NCBI GenBank assembly: GCA_001774685.1
Contig: MFAS01000001.1
Coordinates: 705,485 to 769,484 of the forward strand
Direction of reading: 5' to 3'
DNA: 64,000 bases
From: Candidatus Collierbacteria bacterium RIFOXYD2_FULL_45_13
GTDB lineage: Bacteria > Patescibacteriota > Microgenomatia > UBA1400 > MFAQ01
Part shown: in pieces, positions 43,309 through 51,236 of the stretch
Position numbering within the stretch: position 1 is the first letter of the stretch
Layout: each line of letters opens with the position of its first letter
Notes under the pieces: generated by a model
Databases searched by the model: none
What the model was told of the DNA's origin: nothing
The model's input: the letters and a program-made list of their open reading frames with translations, nothing else
Program-made: the position numbers and the translations under genes

Positions 43309-43336
43309 AAAACCACCCCTCGGGGTGGTTTTCTTT
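43309..43336 (+). terminator. Rho-independent terminator after nadE
   Basis: Hairpin ccacccc-tcg-gggtgg followed by ttttctttt. Confidence 0.7.
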
Positions 43337-43337
43337 T

Positions 43338-43355
43338 GTGACTCGGGGCGGACTC
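43338..43355 (-). repeat. 18-nt direct repeat of the tRNA-Arg(TCT) 3' end (att-like)
   Basis: gtgactcggggcggactc is identical to 43475-43492. Confidence 0.85.
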
Positions 43356-43475
43356 CTCTCGGTCACCACCTGCTGGTGGTGCCTCAAGACCCGGCTCAGC
43401 GCCGTCGCGCTTCTGCCATCCTCGCTCGCCCAAAATAACATTAAAAATCTCCCCACAAGGGAGAGATTTTCAATG

Positions 43476-43549
43476 TGACTCGGGGCGGACTCGGACCGCC
43501 GACCTACTGCTTAGAAGGCAGTCGCTCTATCCAGCTGAGCTACCGAGTC
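43476..43549 (-). tRNA. tRNA-Arg(TCT)
   Basis: Acceptor GACTCGG/CCGAGTC, D-arm AGCTCAGCTGGATAGAGC, anticodon stem ACTGC/GCAGT with loop CTTCTAA, and T-stem GGCGG/CCGCC. Confidence 0.8.
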
Positions 43550-44644: not shown

Positions 44645-47251
44645 TTATACTTGCCTTTTTCGCCAAAGGGAGAACAAGATAGAAACCAGAAGGGAAAGGA
44701 CAACTGTGGCAAGAACCAAAGAGACTGGATTCTTATAGATCGGAGTTTTGCTTTCCTCCGTTACCCGAATATCAAAGTTGAATTGTTTGGTATTGTCTCC
44801 TTCGAGGGTGACTTTTTGTTCTCTGGTAAAGTTGGCGTAGGCTATTTTGATCAAGTGGTTTCCTCCGGGAACGTTATGGAAAAGGGCGATTCCCTGCTTG
44901 TCGGTGTAGCTGGTTTGGATGTCGGAATGAATTTCTACTCTGGCATTAATGATCGGTTGATTTTGCTTACTAATGACCTTGACCTGGACAGTATAACCTT
45001 GCTGTTGGACCTGTTGCTTCTCTTCCTCAGACTGAACCGGAATTTGTTCTTGGTTAGTGATTTCGGTTTGTAAGTTTCCCTGAGTCTGATAGTTAACACC
45101 TGAAGCAGCCGAACTATAGTTAAGGGAAAGATAAAAGACTGGGTAATTGTAGCTATTACCTACCTGATCTTTCAAGCTAAGATTGGTTTGGTAGTATCCG
45201 TCGATTAATGGATAGGGAACAGTGATATAGAAACGGGCATATTTTTCATTAAGAGGTTCATCTTTGATGTCGGTTAAAGAATATTCTTTGGTCAGATGAT
45301 CAATAAAATCGCCTCGACTATCTTTTCTTTTCAGTGTTAGAGTTAGGGTTAGGGGGCCGGAACAAACTTTGTCAAAAGTATCCTTGGTATCATTAGCATT
45401 GGTTTTTGTAGAGCCTTGGTAGGGATCAGAGGCTTTACCAGAAAAAGATGGTGTTCGGTTGGTAACATTAAGTTTATAAACCTGACCTTGTGCAACAGTC
45501 GAAACATTGGCAACTGCCAGTTCAGAGATAGAAGGATTAGTTTTATCGAGATAAAAGTCTTTGGATTCTTCTTTGCTGTTGCCGGCATTATCATAAGCAA
45601 TTACTTTCCAGGAGTGCTTGCCCTCGGTTAGTTCAGCAGAGTCAAGGCCTTTGAAATAGACCCTGATCTGGTCGTTGGTTGAGTCAGAATCATTTTCGTT
45701 GGTAAATTCTACTTTAACACTGGAATCATCCTTCCAAACATAAGCTGAGGATCCGTTGCCAGAAGCCGGAATGCCGGTAGTAGACCAATTCTGGTTTTTG
45801 CCGTCATCCAGAAAAACCGAATAAGAACTGATACCGGCAGTAGCATCAGTGGCTTTTTTGAAAACTAAAGTTGGTCTGGTAAAGTCTTTGGTATAACCGG
45901 TGGGAGAATCCAAAGTCAGACTAATCGGAACGGTGGTGTCGATGGTAAAACTATCAGTTGAAGCATTGGCGTTACTCGTGGTATTGGAGTTGGAATCAGT
46001 AGCCCGTACATAGATCGTGTGGGCTCCGTCAGCTAGAGCTGGAGAAACGGTGCAGGTAAAAGCCTCGGAGGCCTCATCAAAAGTGCCATCGTCGGCCGTG
46101 CAGGCCGTCCAACTACCGGTGGTTCCGTCCATTTGATATTCAACGGAACTGACTGTACCTTCATCCTCAGTGGCTGTTCCTGTGATGGCTGGTGTGGCAT
46201 CAGAAGTTGGATCTGGAGAGAAAGCGGAAAGAGAAATTGAAGGCGCGGCGCTATCCGGGGTCGGAGTGTAATAGACTTTTCGGGTTCTGGACCCCGTATC
46301 TCCGCCAATCAACCACATCTGGCTATCATAGACGACGGAAGAATGGGTATAAGTGGCTACCGGCAAAGCGTCGGTGCCCGCCTCTGTCCAGGTAATACCA
46401 TCAGCTGAGGAGTAGACTCTTCGGGACCTAGCAAATGAAGTCGTAGCTCCTCCAATCACCCACATTTTGCTATCAAAAACGACTGCAGCACTCCATCCAG
46501 TAACCACCGGCAAAGCATTGGTGCCTGCTTCTGTCCAGGTAATCCCATCACTAGAGTAGTAGACTTTTCTGACGAGACCCCCAGCGTATCCTCCAATCAC
46601 CCACATTTTGCTATCAAAGACGACCGAAGAATGGTTATAAGTGGCTACCGGCAAAGCATTGGTGCCTGCTTCTGTCCAGGTAATCCCATCACTAGAGTAG
46701 TAGACTTTTCGGGTTGCGGCAGGAACTGACCCCCCTATCACCCACATTTTGCTATCGAAAACGACCGAAGAATGACCTTCAGTACGCACCGGCAAAGCGT
46801 CGGTGCCCGCCTCTGTCCAGGTAATACCATCGGTAGAGTAGTAGACTTTTCTTTTTATTGCGTCTACGCCCCCGGCCCCAGTATTTCCGCCTATCACCCA
46901 CATCTTGCTATCAAAGACTACAGAAGTATGATTGTAAGTACCCACCGGCAAAGCGTCGGTGCCCGCCTCTGTCCAGGTAATACCATCGGTAGAGTAGTAG
47001 ACTTTTCGGGTTGCGCTCCCCGTATTTCCTCCAATCACCCACATTTTGCTATTGAAAACGATGGAAGAAAGATAGGATGTGGCTACTGGCAAGGCGTCAG
47101 TTCCCGCTTCGACCCAAGAGGAGCCGTCAGGAAGAGCCAGAACTGTTTTGGTTACCAGTGGATTAAACAGAAAAGAGATAAGAAAGCAACTCAAGAGAAC
47201 TATTCTAGATAAGATTTTTTTGATATTAAAGATTTTCAAAAACTTATTCAA
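44645..47251 (-). CDS. cell-surface protein: signal peptide, six or seven Kelch-like beta-propeller repeats, Ig-like domains and a C-terminal TM anchor
   Basis: 868 aa. A roughly 49-aa repeat (YYS.DGITWTEAGT.ALPV......SSVVFDSKMWVIGG) occurs six or more times and is encoded by near-identical 147-bp DNA units. The C-terminal hydrophobic segment is followed by RKRQV. Confidence 0.7.
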   Translation of the reverse strand: MNKFLKIFNIKKILSRIVLLSCFLISFLFNPLVTKTVLALPDGSSWVEAGTDALPVATSYLSSIVFNSKMWVIGGNTGSATRKVYYSTDGITWTEAGTDALPVGTYNHTSVVFDSKMWVIGGNTGAGGVDAIKRKVYYSTDGITWTEAGTDALPVRTEGHSSVVFDSKMWVIGGSVPAATRKVYYSSDGITWTEAGTNALPVATYNHSSVVFDSKMWVIGGYAGGLVRKVYYSSDGITWTEAGTNALPVVTGWSAAVVFDSKMWVIGGATTSFARSRRVYSSADGITWTEAGTDALPVATYTHSSVVYDSQMWLIGGDTGSRTRKVYYTPTPDSAAPSISLSAFSPDPTSDATPAITGTATEDEGTVSSVEYQMDGTTGSWTACTADDGTFDEASEAFTCTVSPALADGAHTIYVRATDSNSNTTSNANASTDSFTIDTTVPISLTLDSPTGYTKDFTRPTLVFKKATDATAGISSYSVFLDDGKNQNWSTTGIPASGNGSSAYVWKDDSSVKVEFTNENDSDSTNDQIRVYFKGLDSAELTEGKHSWKVIAYDNAGNSKEESKDFYLDKTNPSISELAVANVSTVAQGQVYKLNVTNRTPSFSGKASDPYQGSTKTNANDTKDTFDKVCSGPLTLTLTLKRKDSRGDFIDHLTKEYSLTDIKDEPLNEKYARFYITVPYPLIDGYYQTNLSLKDQVGNSYNYPVFYLSLNYSSAASGVNYQTQGNLQTEITNQEQIPVQSEEEKQQVQQQGYTVQVKVISKQNQPIINARVEIHSDIQTSYTDKQGIALFHNVPGGNHLIKIAYANFTREQKVTLEGDNTKQFNFDIRVTEESKTPIYKNPVSLVLATVVLSLLVSILFSLWRKRQV

Positions 47252-47322
47252 AGTATATTTAGTGTATCAAGCGTGTTACACAATTGCAACATATATTACA
47301 GTTAGTATATTCCCATTATTGG

Positions 47323-49773
47323 CTATTTAAATATACCAACAATTAAATTACATATTTTCGAAATTATATCCTGTGTTTTCGAAAAGATTGTACTCTGGTT
47401 ATTTGATAACACAGGCGCTACAACCGAGGTAACAGGGGTTGCTTCGGGAACATCGGTATCTTCGGTCTGTAAAGGGGTAACCTCTGGATTTGTTGTATAA
47501 GACCCAGAACTATAACTTAGATAAAAAGGGCTCATGGTTAATTTGTTATTTGACAAGTCAGTTACCTCAATGACAACTTTATACAAACCATTAACCAGTG
47601 GCTTTGACGGGGTCAAACTAAAGGTAGTGTACTTTGTTAAACTATCACTCAAAATATTCGCAAGCTCAGCACTGGTCAAACTATAATCATAGTATTTTTT
47701 ATATGCGCCTTGTTTTTTAATATCTATAGATACAGTCTTTGGCCCAGAGGCCACACTCTCAAAAGTATCGGTCGTTCCATCAGAATTTGTTTTAGTGCTT
47801 CCCATGAATTTATCAAAAGCAGTGCCCGAAAAAACCGGGTTTCTGAATTGCGATTTAAGCCGGTATGTCTTGCCCGGTGTGATAGAACCGAGTCCTTGAA
47901 TGGCTAGACTTTTGATTTCTGGGTTTGTCTTGTCCAGGTAAACATTATTGGACACGACTCTTTCATTTAACTCACTGTCATAAGCCGTGACTGACCAGGA
48001 ATGGGCTCCTTCAGACAAAAAGTTTGGCTCAAAACCTTTGATTAAGACAGTTATTTCATCGTTGCCTGAGTCTGAGTCGTTTTCGTTACGATAAGTTACT
48101 TTATAGTTACTGTCATCTAAATGGACATAATCCTGTTGGCCGTTTCCGCTGGCCGGTAAACCTGAAATAACGAAGTTTCGATGTTTGTCTCTATCAAAGT
48201 TGACGGAATAAGAGGAGATACCATTGGTATCCGATGACTTATTAAAAACCAATACGGGTTTGTTGTCATTGGTATAATCGACAGGAGAAATCATCTTAAA
48301 ACTTACCGGCGGCGTAATATCCAATGTATAAGTTAACATGAAAATATCAGTTGATCCATTTGAAGTATGGGGCTCACTGTTGTTGTCGCCATTAAAATTC
48401 ATAGTGTTGGCAAACGCACCCGATACATGAAAAGTATTTGAATAAATATCAATAAATGTAGGATAATCGTAGCCTGTTCCTCCCCACGTTCTGGTCCATT
48501 GATAATTAAGGTCGCTATCATATTTCGTGAGGTATAAATCATACAAGCCGTTTGATACATGATTATCAACGCTTTCGCTTGAATCAAAATCAATGGTGTT
48601 TGAAAAAATTCCCCAAATATACAGATTATTGTTGACATCTTTAGTTATATTATAAGCCTCATCTACTCCACTTCCACCAACTGTTTTTATGGATTTGAAA
48701 TTTCCATCTAAGGATAACTCTAGAATATAAATATCAGAAGAACCGCCCACTGTTTTGTTTTGAGTTCCAGAACCTGGATCGAAATCGACAGTGGTAACGA
48801 ATATGCCCGATATCAGGATTCTATCACCAACAAAGGTAAAACCCATCGCACGATCAGTACCCGATCCGCCCCAATTTTTAACCCAAAGAAAGTTTCCGTC
48901 GGCGTCAAATTTTGAGATAAAGTTGTCGTAGCTTCCGTTTGATGTTCGATTGTCTGTACCCGATCCAGGGTCAAAATCGACGGTGTTGAAAAAATCTCCT
49001 AATAGATAAAAATTGTTGTTTGCATCAAAATAAATTTGATCGGAATAATCATGATTACTCCCTCCAAACGTTTTTGTCCAAACATGATTACCACTTAAAT
49101 CGAATTTTGTAAGAAAGATATCGTATCCGCCATTTGAAGTATGATTGTCTGTACCTGCGCCCGGATCAAAGTCTGGTGTGGAGAAAAATCTGCCATAAAC
49201 ATATATATTTGTATAATCATTATTAAAAGAAACTATTTCTGGCCTATCGTGAGAATCTCCACCCCATGTTTTGGTCCACTGATGATTACCATTTGAATCA
49301 TACTTAGTCAGGAAACCATCAAGGCCGTTTGCGGTATGATTGTCTGTACCTGCACCTGGGTCAAAATCAACAGTACTTTCGAATTCTCCAGTAACGTAAA
49401 CATTGTTGTCGGTGTCAAAAGTTAAGCTATTATAATCATCAAAAGTTCCTGCCCCCCCCCAAACCTTTGTCCATAAGTAATTACCGCCGGAATCGTATTT
49501 AGAAAGAAACATATCATATCCTCCCGCAGAAGTATAACTATCAACACCTACCGTCGGGTCAAAATCAACAGTTGTTGAAAAATAACCAAAAATATATGTG
49601 TTTCCGTCAAAATCTGTTTTTACTTTTGCCCAATCAACCCCGCTTCCACCAATTGATATGCCTGATTGATAAATTAAACCATCCACGGCTAGAATCTTTT
49701 GTGGAAACACAAACGAAAGCGAGAATATTGTTATTGATACGCAGACAGCCCTGATAAACATACGGATATTCAT
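47323..49773 (-). CDS. secreted protein with SBBP-type beta-propeller repeats and a C-terminal half paralogous to the upstream gene
   Basis: 816 aa with a signal peptide. About eight repeats of the form WTKTWGG...D......GN.YV.G.F..TVDFDPG.GTDN match the SBBP beta-propeller pattern. The C-terminal roughly 300 aa (ISSYSV...PASGNG...NENDSDS...DKTNP) aligns to the upstream protein. Confidence 0.7.
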   Translation of the reverse strand: MNIRMFIRAVCVSITIFSLSFVFPQKILAVDGLIYQSGISIGGSGVDWAKVKTDFDGNTYIFGYFSTTVDFDPTVGVDSYTSAGGYDMFLSKYDSGGNYLWTKVWGGAGTFDDYNSLTFDTDNNVYVTGEFESTVDFDPGAGTDNHTANGLDGFLTKYDSNGNHQWTKTWGGDSHDRPEIVSFNNDYTNIYVYGRFFSTPDFDPGAGTDNHTSNGGYDIFLTKFDLSGNHVWTKTFGGSNHDYSDQIYFDANNNFYLLGDFFNTVDFDPGSGTDNRTSNGSYDNFISKFDADGNFLWVKNWGGSGTDRAMGFTFVGDRILISGIFVTTVDFDPGSGTQNKTVGGSSDIYILELSLDGNFKSIKTVGGSGVDEAYNITKDVNNNLYIWGIFSNTIDFDSSESVDNHVSNGLYDLYLTKYDSDLNYQWTRTWGGTGYDYPTFIDIYSNTFHVSGAFANTMNFNGDNNSEPHTSNGSTDIFMLTYTLDITPPVSFKMISPVDYTNDNKPVLVFNKSSDTNGISSYSVNFDRDKHRNFVISGLPASGNGQQDYVHLDDSNYKVTYRNENDSDSGNDEITVLIKGFEPNFLSEGAHSWSVTAYDSELNERVVSNNVYLDKTNPEIKSLAIQGLGSITPGKTYRLKSQFRNPVFSGTAFDKFMGSTKTNSDGTTDTFESVASGPKTVSIDIKKQGAYKKYYDYSLTSAELANILSDSLTKYTTFSLTPSKPLVNGLYKVVIEVTDLSNNKLTMSPFYLSYSSGSYTTNPEVTPLQTEDTDVPEATPVTSVVAPVLSNNQSTIFSKTQDIISKICNLIVGIFK

Positions 49774-49999
49774 TCCTCTATATTATAGTTATTATAGTAA
49801 TAAAACAAATTTGTCCAATATCTGTGTTTGCATATCTCGTATTTATTCAAGACTTTTTGCGTCTGGTTGACCAAATGCATTGTCCACAACATCGTCCATC
49901 TGCTAAAGAATTGTACTCTGAAATATTCTGGCAGAGTTCAAAAATTCGCTGAAAAACAGTGATGGTTTTGAAAAATGTGACTTATTGGAGCGAATGGGG

Positions 50000-50186
50000 C
50001 CTGCCCGCCGGTAGGTGGGGGAGTCGGCCTCTTCGGTCTCGCTTACTAGCTCGCCTCTGAGCGCGCCTCGCCGCCAGTCGCGCTTCCGGCGGGATCAGCT
50101 CTCGTAAGAGCTAGTGCCGAAATATCTTTCGGCGCCGACTAGTTCACACAACAAAGTCCCCCATAAAGAGGGACTTCGTTTTATTG
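50000..50186 (-). repeat. GC-rich tRNA-flanking element downstream of tRNA-Gly(TCC)
   Basis: Hairpin aagtccc-ccataaaga-gggactt next to the tRNA. A core gaagcgcgactggcggcgaggcgcgctcagaggcgag is homologous to the cores of the other three elements. A degenerate copy of the tRNA 3' end (gtgggggagtcgg) sits at 50014-50027. GC content is visibly far above local background. Confidence 0.55.
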
Positions 50187-50844: not shown

Positions 50845-50918
50845 GGTGGATTTAGCTTAGTCGGTAAAGCGCCTCCCTGTGGAGGAGGAGATCGCGGGTT
50901 CGAGTCCCGTAATCCACC
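50845..50918 (+). tRNA. tRNA-His(GTG) with a genome-encoded G-1
   Basis: G-1 followed by GTGGATT/AATCCAC, discriminator C, anticodon stem CCTCC/GGAGG with loop CTGTGGA, and T-loop TTCGAGT. Confidence 0.8.
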
Positions 50919-50920
50919 CA

Positions 50921-50955
50921 AATAAATCTCTCCCTCGTGGGGAGATTTTTATTTG
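50921..50955 (+). terminator. Rho-independent terminator after tRNA-His; also the 5' part of the tRNA-flanking element
   Basis: aaatctctccc-tcgt-ggggagattt followed by ttatttgg. The hairpin is almost identical to the one next to tRNA-Arg. Confidence 0.65.
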
Positions 50956-51077
50956 GATAATAATTACGGGACTCGAGTGACGGAACCAGTTTCGTGACGA
51001 ACCTGGTGAGGCGGGTCTTGAGGCAATTTCTATTGAAATTGACCGAAAGGAGTCCCGACGTAAGGAGAGTCCCCATA

Positions 51078-51092
51078 CCCGCAATCCACCCA
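51078..51092 (+). repeat. 15-nt near-direct repeat of the tRNA-His 3' end (att-like)
   Basis: cccgcaatccaccca versus cccgtaatccaccca at 50906-50920. Confidence 0.7.
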
Positions 51093-51236
51093 CTTGATGT
51101 ATCAAAAAATAGAGGTCGATGGGGAAACTGTCGGTGGTATAGCTTTAACAGTTCAGGACGGTCTTTTTATGGTAAAATAACTATAGTTAAGGGGATAGAG
51201 TAAATATTATTACAAAACACTCTATCATACTATACT

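Follow-up and report, generated by a model that had tools for sequence, protein, structure and literature searches.

In Kelly Williams's classification of integration sites from 2002, one class of integrative elements reportedly uses a sublocation in the T-loop of tRNA and tmRNA genes. Such prophages and genomic islands leave the tRNA intact, are marked by a repeat that runs from the T-loop to the 3' end, and accumulate in tandem. The element described here, which lies behind tRNA-His(GTG) in a Candidatus Collierbacteria genome, shares these traits and the same targets, tmRNA included. Unlike those islands, it is only about 125–170 nt long, contains no integrase or other gene, and combines an inverted copy of its target with a conserved structured core, related cores being present at many tRNAs. 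A further parallel is offered by the attP(+) hairpin of CTX-phi (XerCD) and by the attC sites of integrons, where two inverted arms likewise fold into a duplex that mimics the target, around a variable or structured centre, with structure more conserved than sequence and with strand specificity. The arms of the element, however, copy only the T-loop and one stem strand rather than a full two-arm recombinase site, no link to Xer or IntI was found, and the flanking repeats of 15–24 nt are not made by those systems. An assignment to attC in particular was considered and rejected: compared by eye and without an attC model, the arms (..TCGAAC and (C)TTCGA..) resemble boxes R'' (RYYYAAC) and R' (GTTRRRY) only partly, and no cassette array or intI gene occurs in the inspected loci.

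MITEs and REPINs resemble the element in size (roughly 100–150 nt), in their many copies per genome, in being intergenic, hairpin-forming and gene-free, and in their long life with compensatory changes. They differ in that the element is strictly confined to tRNA and tmRNA 3' ends in a single orientation, has target-derived arms and has no known partner transposase; nor does it possess the element-borne TIRs and fixed-length target duplication of a MITE, as its arms copy the local tRNA and its repeats vary from 8 to 24 nt and end near the tRNA 3' end. Among RNAs, the tRNA 3'-ETS sRNAs (3'ETS-leuZ of E. coli) also stand right behind a tRNA in the same orientation, and some copies of the element must similarly be co-transcribed, but the former are short unstructured sponges without tRNA copies, whereas the element usually places a terminator-like hairpin ahead of a conserved three-way junction. 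The type I hammerhead shares with it a three-way junction, an open first stem and tandem G-A pairs that extend the second stem; it differs in its core sequence requirements, which the element lacks, in the extra covarying helix of the element and in the absence of any model match. Hammerhead, HDV and twister-type ribozymes gave no Rfam hit at E <= 10 (or at E <= 1 in one scan), and the CUGANGA...GAAA core is wanting. A group I intron (P3–P9, more than 200 nt, interrupting the tRNA) was likewise dismissed, given a core of about 65–75 nt, an uninterrupted upstream tRNA and no Rfam Intron_gpI hit, even though such introns are common in the tRNAs of Patescibacteria (PMC13011429). An analogy to TIGR, box C/D or IS110 bridge RNAs (PMC12045711) fails in that the internal loops of the element are constant and not programmable.

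Patescibacterial tRNA group I introns (PMC13011429), tmRNA T-loop introns and islands (PMC11915505) and TIGR-Tas (PMC12045711) represent the nearest literature, and the element appears in none of these. A full-text search, whose coverage was incomplete so that an earlier description is possible, found no account of it. CPR bacteria account for much of bacterial diversity, and their genomes of about 1 Mb hold very little spare DNA. Despite this economy, essential tRNA and tmRNA genes of at least four CPR lineages are followed by the element, which is retained in several copies per genome.

Anatomy of the element behind tRNA-His

The window, by which we mean the whole 64-kb stretch of DNA that was analysed, contains 11 tRNA genes. 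One of these, tRNA-His(GTG), occupies positions 50845–50918 of the plus strand when its encoded G-1 is counted (ARAGORN, 50846–50919; Rfam tRNA, 71.7 bits). In line with the original prediction of an encoded G-1, a G at 50845 stands ahead of the acceptor strand GTGGATT; the partner strand AATCCAC lies at 50911–50917 and C73 at 50918, preceded by the 5' strand of the T-stem (50894–50898), the T-loop (50899–50905) and the 3' strand of the T-stem (50906–50910). The segment of this functional gene from the T-loop to the discriminator, plus CA (50899–50920, plus strand), is the part that is repeated in relatives and is here called the upstream copy.

The upstream copy is followed on the same strand by a terminator-like hairpin, T1, with a T tract (50924–50953). 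The stem-loop itself (50924–50948) pairs aaatctctccc with ggggagattt around the loop tcgt and was correctly described as near-identical to its counterpart behind tRNA-Arg(TCT), the two agreeing at 96% over 28 nt (43442–43469). With a GC-containing stem of 10 bp and, by the count of the scan, a loop of 5 nt, followed by TTATTTGG, T1 is a predicted intrinsic terminator. Next comes an inverted arm at 50963–50976 (plus strand), attacgggactcga, the exact reverse complement of positions 50900–50913 of tRNA-His (tcgagtcccgtaat), which comprise T-loop, T-stem 3' strand and first acceptor bases. This perfect 14-nt inverted copy, for which the chance expectation is 0, had escaped the original prediction. 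Its bases 50967–50974 supply the 5' strand of a closing helix, P1. T1 stands at the centre of a long quasi-palindrome (50900–50976) that departs from the tRNA 3' end, passes through a poorly matched stretch and comes back into register at the inverted arm.

The conserved core (50977–51049, plus strand) forms a three-way junction with two hairpin arms, P2 and P3, an assignment that rests on a covariance-model match, on covariation and on the compensated stems of a related tRNA-His locus described below. P2 consists of outer pairs, a GA/GA internal loop and a long hairpin (50985–51007), and P3 of tctt/agga, GA/GA, gg/cc and the hairpin caatttc-tatt-gaaattg (51024–51041), both on the plus strand; the conserved motifs of the core are GACGGA, GAG, GAGG and ACCGAAAG. 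A first, partial direct copy of the tRNA, gagtcccg (51050–51057, plus strand; 3' part of the T-loop and T-stem 3' strand), provides the 3' strand of P1. It is followed by an imperfect duplication of 20 nt (51058–51077, plus strand), in which acgtaAGGAGAGTCCCCata repeats the junction of core end and T-loop, AAGGAGTCCC, and which is possibly a remnant of an older copy or of slippage. The downstream copy proper, cccgcaatccaccca (51078–51092, plus strand), runs from the T-stem 3' strand to the discriminator plus CA and matches 50906–50920 at 14 of 15 bases, where 0.08 such matches are expected by chance; the one difference, T to C at 51082, would make the T-stem perfect. The direct repeat typical of tRNA-integrating elements is thus present, in split form. 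In all, the element measures about 170 bases and the repeat-bounded segment 158 nt, and the latter encodes no tyrosine or serine integrase and no credible ORF.

The original prediction for this interval, which proposed no mechanism, stands in all its sequence features. The segments gggactc and gagtccc do bound a nested-stem segment (50969–50975 and 51051–51057), and the shared core that it named, ggtgaggcgggtcttgaggca (51005–51025), recurs in the window only at the Arg instance, with 2 mismatches, and not at all (0) in shuffled sequence. The 15-nt near-copy of the tRNA-His 3' end is real, although the end given for it, 51095, is 3 nt too long, the true end being 51092. The overlapping ORFs were rightly considered spurious: there is no Pfam match and the interval is empty in public gene calls. 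The minus-strand ORFs 50852–51076 and 50857–51105 overlap tRNA-His and show no sign of coding, and ORF 50994–51203 is not among the window ORFs of at least 70 aa. Neither ARAGORN nor Rfam RF00005 calls a tRNA in 50920–51100, and neither the downstream copy nor the element is a tRNA.

A family of elements behind tRNA and tmRNA genes

Recurrence of the element had been predicted, with tRNA-His as its fourth instance, and the covariance model described below returns exactly four copies from the window, all behind tRNAs. These four hosts, among the 11 tRNAs of the window, are Leu(CAG), Arg(TCT), Gly(TCC) and His, and a common layout is found at each: tRNA, hairpin, inverted arm, core, and a direct tRNA copy from T-loop to discriminator. 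The Leu(CAG) instance (35222–35365, plus strand; 94.9 bits) has T1 at 35231–35257, the inverted arm at 35267–35277, a core that extends to 35341 and a 24-nt repeat from 35342. On the minus strand, the Arg(TCT) instance (43336–43474; 70.6 bits) has T1 at 43438–43476, the core at 43342–43434 and a 19-nt repeat, and the Gly(TCC) instance (49988–50185; 79.3 bits) has T1 at 50150–50180, the core at 50016–50107 and a split repeat. In the Gly(TCC) instance, T1 and the junction are also separated by two additional hairpins, gcgccgaaagatatttcggc and agctcttacgagagct (50108–50149, minus strand), and the same two-hairpin insert is found at another locus (L161:8405–8445), where it adjoins a truncated tRNA-Gly remnant.

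A degenerate motif derived from the four window cores was scanned over 185,579 species-representative genomes and JGI metagenomes. About half of the genome-scan matches are true relatives, all with the same flanks, the remainder being chance matches in GC-rich coding DNA. A covariance model, R1, built from 29 copies with the His copy excluded, finds 67 distinct copies in the motif-scan loci, from CPR genomes and metagenomes, and recovers the His copy at 50962–51063 (30.3 bits, E about 1e-6). With filters off, R1 matches exactly the four window instances, and its next best match reaches 11.6 bits. The His copy displays the hallmarks of the family, namely P2 and P3 with GA/GA loops, the series GAG...GAGG...ACCGARRR, and, downstream of a tRNA or tmRNA gene, arms of tRNA origin that form the closing helix; its arm pairing amounts to -20.6 kcal/mol. 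No Rfam 15 family other than that of the 11 window tRNAs passes its gathering threshold in the window, and low-stringency Rfam searches with three types of the element yielded only chance miRNA-like hits to the T1 palindrome.

The tie to tRNA and tmRNA genes is close. A tRNA or tmRNA gene on the same strand ends 0–170 nt upstream in 60 of the 67 copies, mostly 35–56 nt before the model start, and most share with that gene an exact repeat of 17–24 nt that starts at T-loop position 54–57 and ends 0–3 nt past the discriminator. Hosts comprise more than 15 tRNA species, including Thr, Arg, Ala, Gly, Trp, Glu, Leu, Tyr, His, Val, Ile, Lys, Gln and Asp, in addition to tmRNA in two loci (L099 and L100, the latter recognised as tmRNA by Rfam at 114 bits). 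By their record titles the carriers are Collierbacteria, Woesebacteria, Paceibacterota, Saccharibacteria and a "Patescibacteria group". Element-bearing MAG contigs with the title "uncultured Pseudomonadales" (L074, L085, L087, L100, L107 and L115) are probably mislabelled, as at least one of them, L087, shares its tRNA gene order with a Collierbacteria locus (L123). On a GC-rich contig that does not look like CPR (L166:2100–2330), a 110-nt insert without the family core is accompanied by an exact 23-nt repeat of the tRNA-Leu(CAA) 3' end, and small repeat-flanked inserts at tRNA ends thus occur outside the family as well.

T1 travels with the element: the four hairpins of its loop class in the 64 kb (C-YT-N-R-Y-G, stem of at least 7 bp) all belong to elements, one to each, and the allele AAAUCUCUC(C/G)C-UYGU-(G/C)GGGAGAUUU is shared by copies at different tRNAs from different genomes. 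The loops of strong terminators that follow protein genes in the window are unrelated to this class. A few copies do without T1 (L110, L134, L177 and L104) and start 0–5 nt past the tRNA; these must be co-transcribed with it. A motif resembling TTGTnAAT between T1 and the junction was considered as a conserved -10 box and set aside, because it mostly mirrors the ..ACAA end of the tRNA within the T1 palindrome, and no promoter is claimed.

A conserved three-way junction

The original prediction proposed structure prediction with covariation across instances as its check, and the stems are indeed supported across the 67 relatives. P2 and P3, in each of which a tandem G-A internal loop separates an outer helix from an inner hairpin, are borne out by RNAalifold and pair counting on the 67-sequence alignment, in which paired cells reach 96.1% as against 71.5% in shuffles. 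Compensatory changes affect 17 of 19 pairs, compared with 13.3 in shuffles, and the covariation score is 0.657, compared with at most 0.063 when the partners are slid by 1–3 columns. The alignment was fitted to the model, which favours structure, and the margin over the controls is large. Roughly 35 nucleotides are near-invariant, in CCUG(C/A)CGGA, GCGAC(N)GGC, GAG, GAGG, CAGCAG and ACCGARRR. P1, formed by the inverted arm and the downstream direct copy, varies in sequence with the tRNA, and cognate arm duplexes average -15.3 kcal/mol as against -11.6 for non-cognate ones (p = 2e-10), so that the arms are specific to the local tRNA. Taken together, the helices form a three-way junction that is closed by sequence derived from the target; in one copy (L125) the closing helix is extended with non-tRNA sequence.

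The fold has a sense. G-U pairs, such as the 12 U-G at one P3 pair, are tolerated on the tRNA-sense strand alone, and together with the purine-purine G-A loops they make sense on that strand only. The junction has a GC content of 0.51–0.69 in a genome of 0.43. Two further motifs were looked for and rejected: the tandem G-A pairs are not accompanied by the 3-nt bulge of a kink-turn, and covariation indicative of a kissing interaction between the P2 and P3 loops is absent by eye. In a minimum-energy fold of a read-through pre-tRNA-His (50845–51095), the acceptor and T stems are formed by the downstream copy while the upstream copy pairs with the inverted arm, and alternative pairings are hence possible in a read-through RNA, although co-transcriptional folding and termination at T1 would normally prevent this one.

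Subfamilies, tandem copies and apparent exchange of parts

The His copy is a somewhat divergent member of the family and belongs to a subfamily with a long P2, marked by the hairpin loop CGU(G/A)ACG and located behind tRNA-His (in the window and at L160), tRNA-Gln (L127), tRNA-Val (L087) and a tRNA-like gene (L152). Between the two tRNA-His members, both inner stems differ wholly in sequence, while the pairing is intact and the junction motifs are kept. The arms at L160 pair with each other but mismatch the local tRNA-His, and correspond instead to the type of tRNA-His 3' end seen at L161. Because they still pair without this match, the closing helix is maintained for its own sake, and persistence does not depend on identity with the tRNA. 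At L139, tRNA-His is followed by the common-type subfamily with an exact 21-nt repeat, as against the long-P2 type in the window. Presence is patchy: tRNA-His bears the element in the window, L139, L160 and L181 and lacks it at L110 and L161, despite the same Gly-Pro-His gene order at L161.

Copies also accumulate at single sites. Two different units stand behind a single tRNA at L077, a second unit adjoins a truncated tRNA-Gly 3' remnant at L161, and two complete but divergent units, each with its own T1, lie in tandem at L152. There (L152:680–1070) the units follow a tRNA-like 3' end, ggtcacgggttcgaatcccgtcagcctcgcca, that ARAGORN does not call and that may belong to an intron-containing tRNA. 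Short duplications placed exactly at the boundary of core and T-loop occur at L075 and L099 and in the His copy, and nested junction repeats like the one at 51058–51077 are present at L075, L099 and L077. In the arrays at L122:2590–2860 and L105:2100–2340, the same arms, derived from tRNA-Leu(CAA), flank either the family core or a minimal hairpin, aucccgacaggucggga, and the core thus appears to be exchangeable within a constant framework of arms. One copy (L119:7150–7545) is opposite in orientation to the nearest tRNA, Arg(CCG), with a T1-type palindrome between them and a 15-nt tRNA-end repeat 312 nt off, an arrangement that may reflect inversion between inverted arms.

A possible insertion element or host RNA

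We favour, at somewhat short of even confidence, the reading of a miniature insertion element, non-autonomous and directed at position 53/54 of tRNA-like genes, whose conserved fold acts as a single-stranded nucleic acid. It is tiny, gene-free, multicopy and patchy, its subfamilies are common to unrelated tRNAs, and its copies stand in tandem or nested, all of which argues for a small insertion element, while the folded duplex copy of the target beside the junction, resembling CTX-phi attP and integron attC, argues for single-stranded action. From this anatomy we infer movement, the point of insertion, which repeat copy is the original and the mode of action. The unit comprises the tRNA tail, T1, a spacer, the inverted arm and the core and would sit at T-loop position 53/54, the tRNA retaining an intact 3' end and a hairpin terminator and a second copy from T-loop to discriminator lying behind the core. 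The inverted arm pairs with this second copy and so closes the three-way junction, the part under selection. The junction would most likely be single-stranded in action, either as ssDNA recognised in trans by an activity of recombination or repair or as RNA produced when transcription reads through the tRNA gene. The order of parts, tRNA(1–53), tail, T1, inverted arm, core and tail, fits a circle of inverted arm, core, tail and T1 joined at 53/54. The inverted arm may have originated through template switching in a fold-back, or quasi-palindrome, around T1, by which the tRNA end would be copied; of this copy, only what pairs would then be retained, through selection for the closing helix. Template switching of this kind creates and repairs hairpins (PMC8794818).

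Several observations weigh against mobility. No recombinase, transposase or reverse transcriptase was linked to the element and no free, circular or autonomous form was found, and copies are absent from IMG/VR (0 viral hits with the specific motif) and, by BLAST, from phage and plasmid collections; 68 IMG/VR hits with a loose motif were all chance matches in GC-rich coding DNA. At about 150 bp, a double-stranded circle would fall below the size that classical integrases need. That the arms match each host tRNA is beyond the reach of a simple site-specific recombinase, and a jump to a new tRNA would yield a chimeric, inactive tRNA. A search for empty and filled alleles with alignable flanks, which would show movement directly, found none; for tRNA-His, the flanks in the window and in L161 and L110 are too diverged. 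The compensated fold at the apparently orthologous tRNA-His loci of the window and L160 fits a function in place at least as well as mobility, and the T1-less variants, which must be co-transcribed, also count against a mobile reading.

These last points lead to the main rival, which we hold to be a real, if tentative, possibility: a host non-coding RNA in the tRNA 3' trailer, its junction closed by the tRNA arms and released from read-through or co-transcribed precursors. Such an RNA would have a conserved protein as its partner or would take part in the metabolism of tRNA 3' ends, for example by assisting processing or quality control, by serving as a decoy or by offering a spare 3' fragment, and local duplication would give rise to new copies. 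The fixed position and orientation relative to the tRNA, the necessary co-transcription of T1-less variants, the confinement of G-U pairs to the tRNA-sense strand and a GC-rich junction (0.51–0.69) in a genome of 0.43 GC all speak for it, as do strong covariation and about 35 near-invariant nucleotides across CPR classes, which denote strong purifying selection on structure, and a closing helix that is kept by compensatory change after losing its tRNA match (L160) or extended beyond the tRNA sequence (L125). Yet only some tRNAs carry it (4 of the 11 in the window) and the set differs among related genomes, T1 looks like an efficient terminator ahead of the junction, and inspection by eye found no convincing conserved promoter between the two and no consistent terminator after the junction; tandem and nested copies and subfamilies common to unrelated tRNAs are, moreover, typical of mobile DNA. 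The two readings are compatible, in that a selfish element may need an RNA or ssDNA fold to propagate. Direct repeats of the 3' part of tRNAs from the T-loop on, tmRNA included, are also the classic signature of integrase-mediated integration, and the copies could be attachment-site scars (attL/attR) that remain after the bodies of larger integrated elements, such as prophages or genomic islands, were deleted, with a conserved attP arm as the core. L161, with an ORF-containing segment of about 700 nt between two repeat-flanked units, and the GC-rich, non-CPR L166, with its repeat-flanked 110-nt insert without the family core, agree with this, but we rate it as decidedly unlikely: about 50 copies are equally compact, with 10–20 nt from T1 to an inverted arm in register with the T1 palindrome, as random deletions would not leave them; kilobase-scale islands with a copy at their far end were not found, nor was an integrase seen nearby, and there are no viral or plasmid matches; and covariation of stems is unexpected for protein-binding arm sites. 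A small self-cleaving or self-splicing ribozyme whose cut falls at the boundary of core and T-loop, be it a mini-intron or a three-way junction of the hammerhead kind, would account for nested duplications clustering exactly there and has the topology of a type I hammerhead on its side (open stem, CUGA-like strand, hairpin closed by tandem G-A, GA(N), second hairpin, boundary), besides the fact that tmRNA T-loops are known targets of group I introns (PMC11915505). It is highly improbable all the same, with no match to an Rfam ribozyme or intron model even at E = 10, an extra base in the strand equivalent to CUGANGA (often CUGCCGGA), GAG in place of GAAA, a covarying outer P2 helix that fills the would-be unpaired catalytic core, and an upstream tRNA that is already complete, so that splicing is unneeded.

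The insertion reading can be carried further, to a form that we consider unlikely. The three-way junction would be the active part of a gene-free, self-propagating cassette for tRNA-like genes, catalytic or recognised as ssDNA or RNA, that inserts at 53/54. By carrying a replacement tRNA 3' end and a terminator, it would let the essential host gene survive, and since both of its homology arms belong to a universally conserved gene, DNA uptake could carry it from one species to another. On a par with this, the element may supply a spare tRNA 3' fragment for the repair of tRNAs cleaved in the T-loop. If the element is mobile, it would demonstrate that a gene-free element can colonise essential, universally conserved genes harmlessly, and it would point to a hitherto unknown activity in recombination or template switching. 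If it is a host RNA, it would constitute a new and widespread RNA class connected with the biology of tRNA 3' ends, in organisms about whose RNA processing little is understood. In either case it explains spurious ORF calls and contig breaks beside tRNAs, and R1 can be used for annotation.

Other features of the window

Upstream of tRNA-Leu(CAG), at 34975–35139, partial copies of the tRNA 5' end occur (gggcaggtggcggaatg..tggtag, with gggcagg/cctgc hairpins), which look like either a tRNA pseudogene or an equivalent, on the 5' side, of the 3' duplications. Right after the Leu(CAG) element lies a strong promoter-like site (35400–35428; TTGACA, a 17-nt spacer and TAAAAT, with TG). A conserved cttgacatc similarly follows the Arg(TCG) copies at L087, L110 and L123. 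In all these cases the downstream repeat copy abuts the promoter of the next gene. Finally, the minus strand of the window holds two very large ORFs at 44645–49773, of 868 and 816 aa, composed of tandem repeats with units of 141–147 nt and 195 nt. In public gene calls, the first has Kelch and beta-propeller Pfam hits, whereas the second has no Pfam hit.
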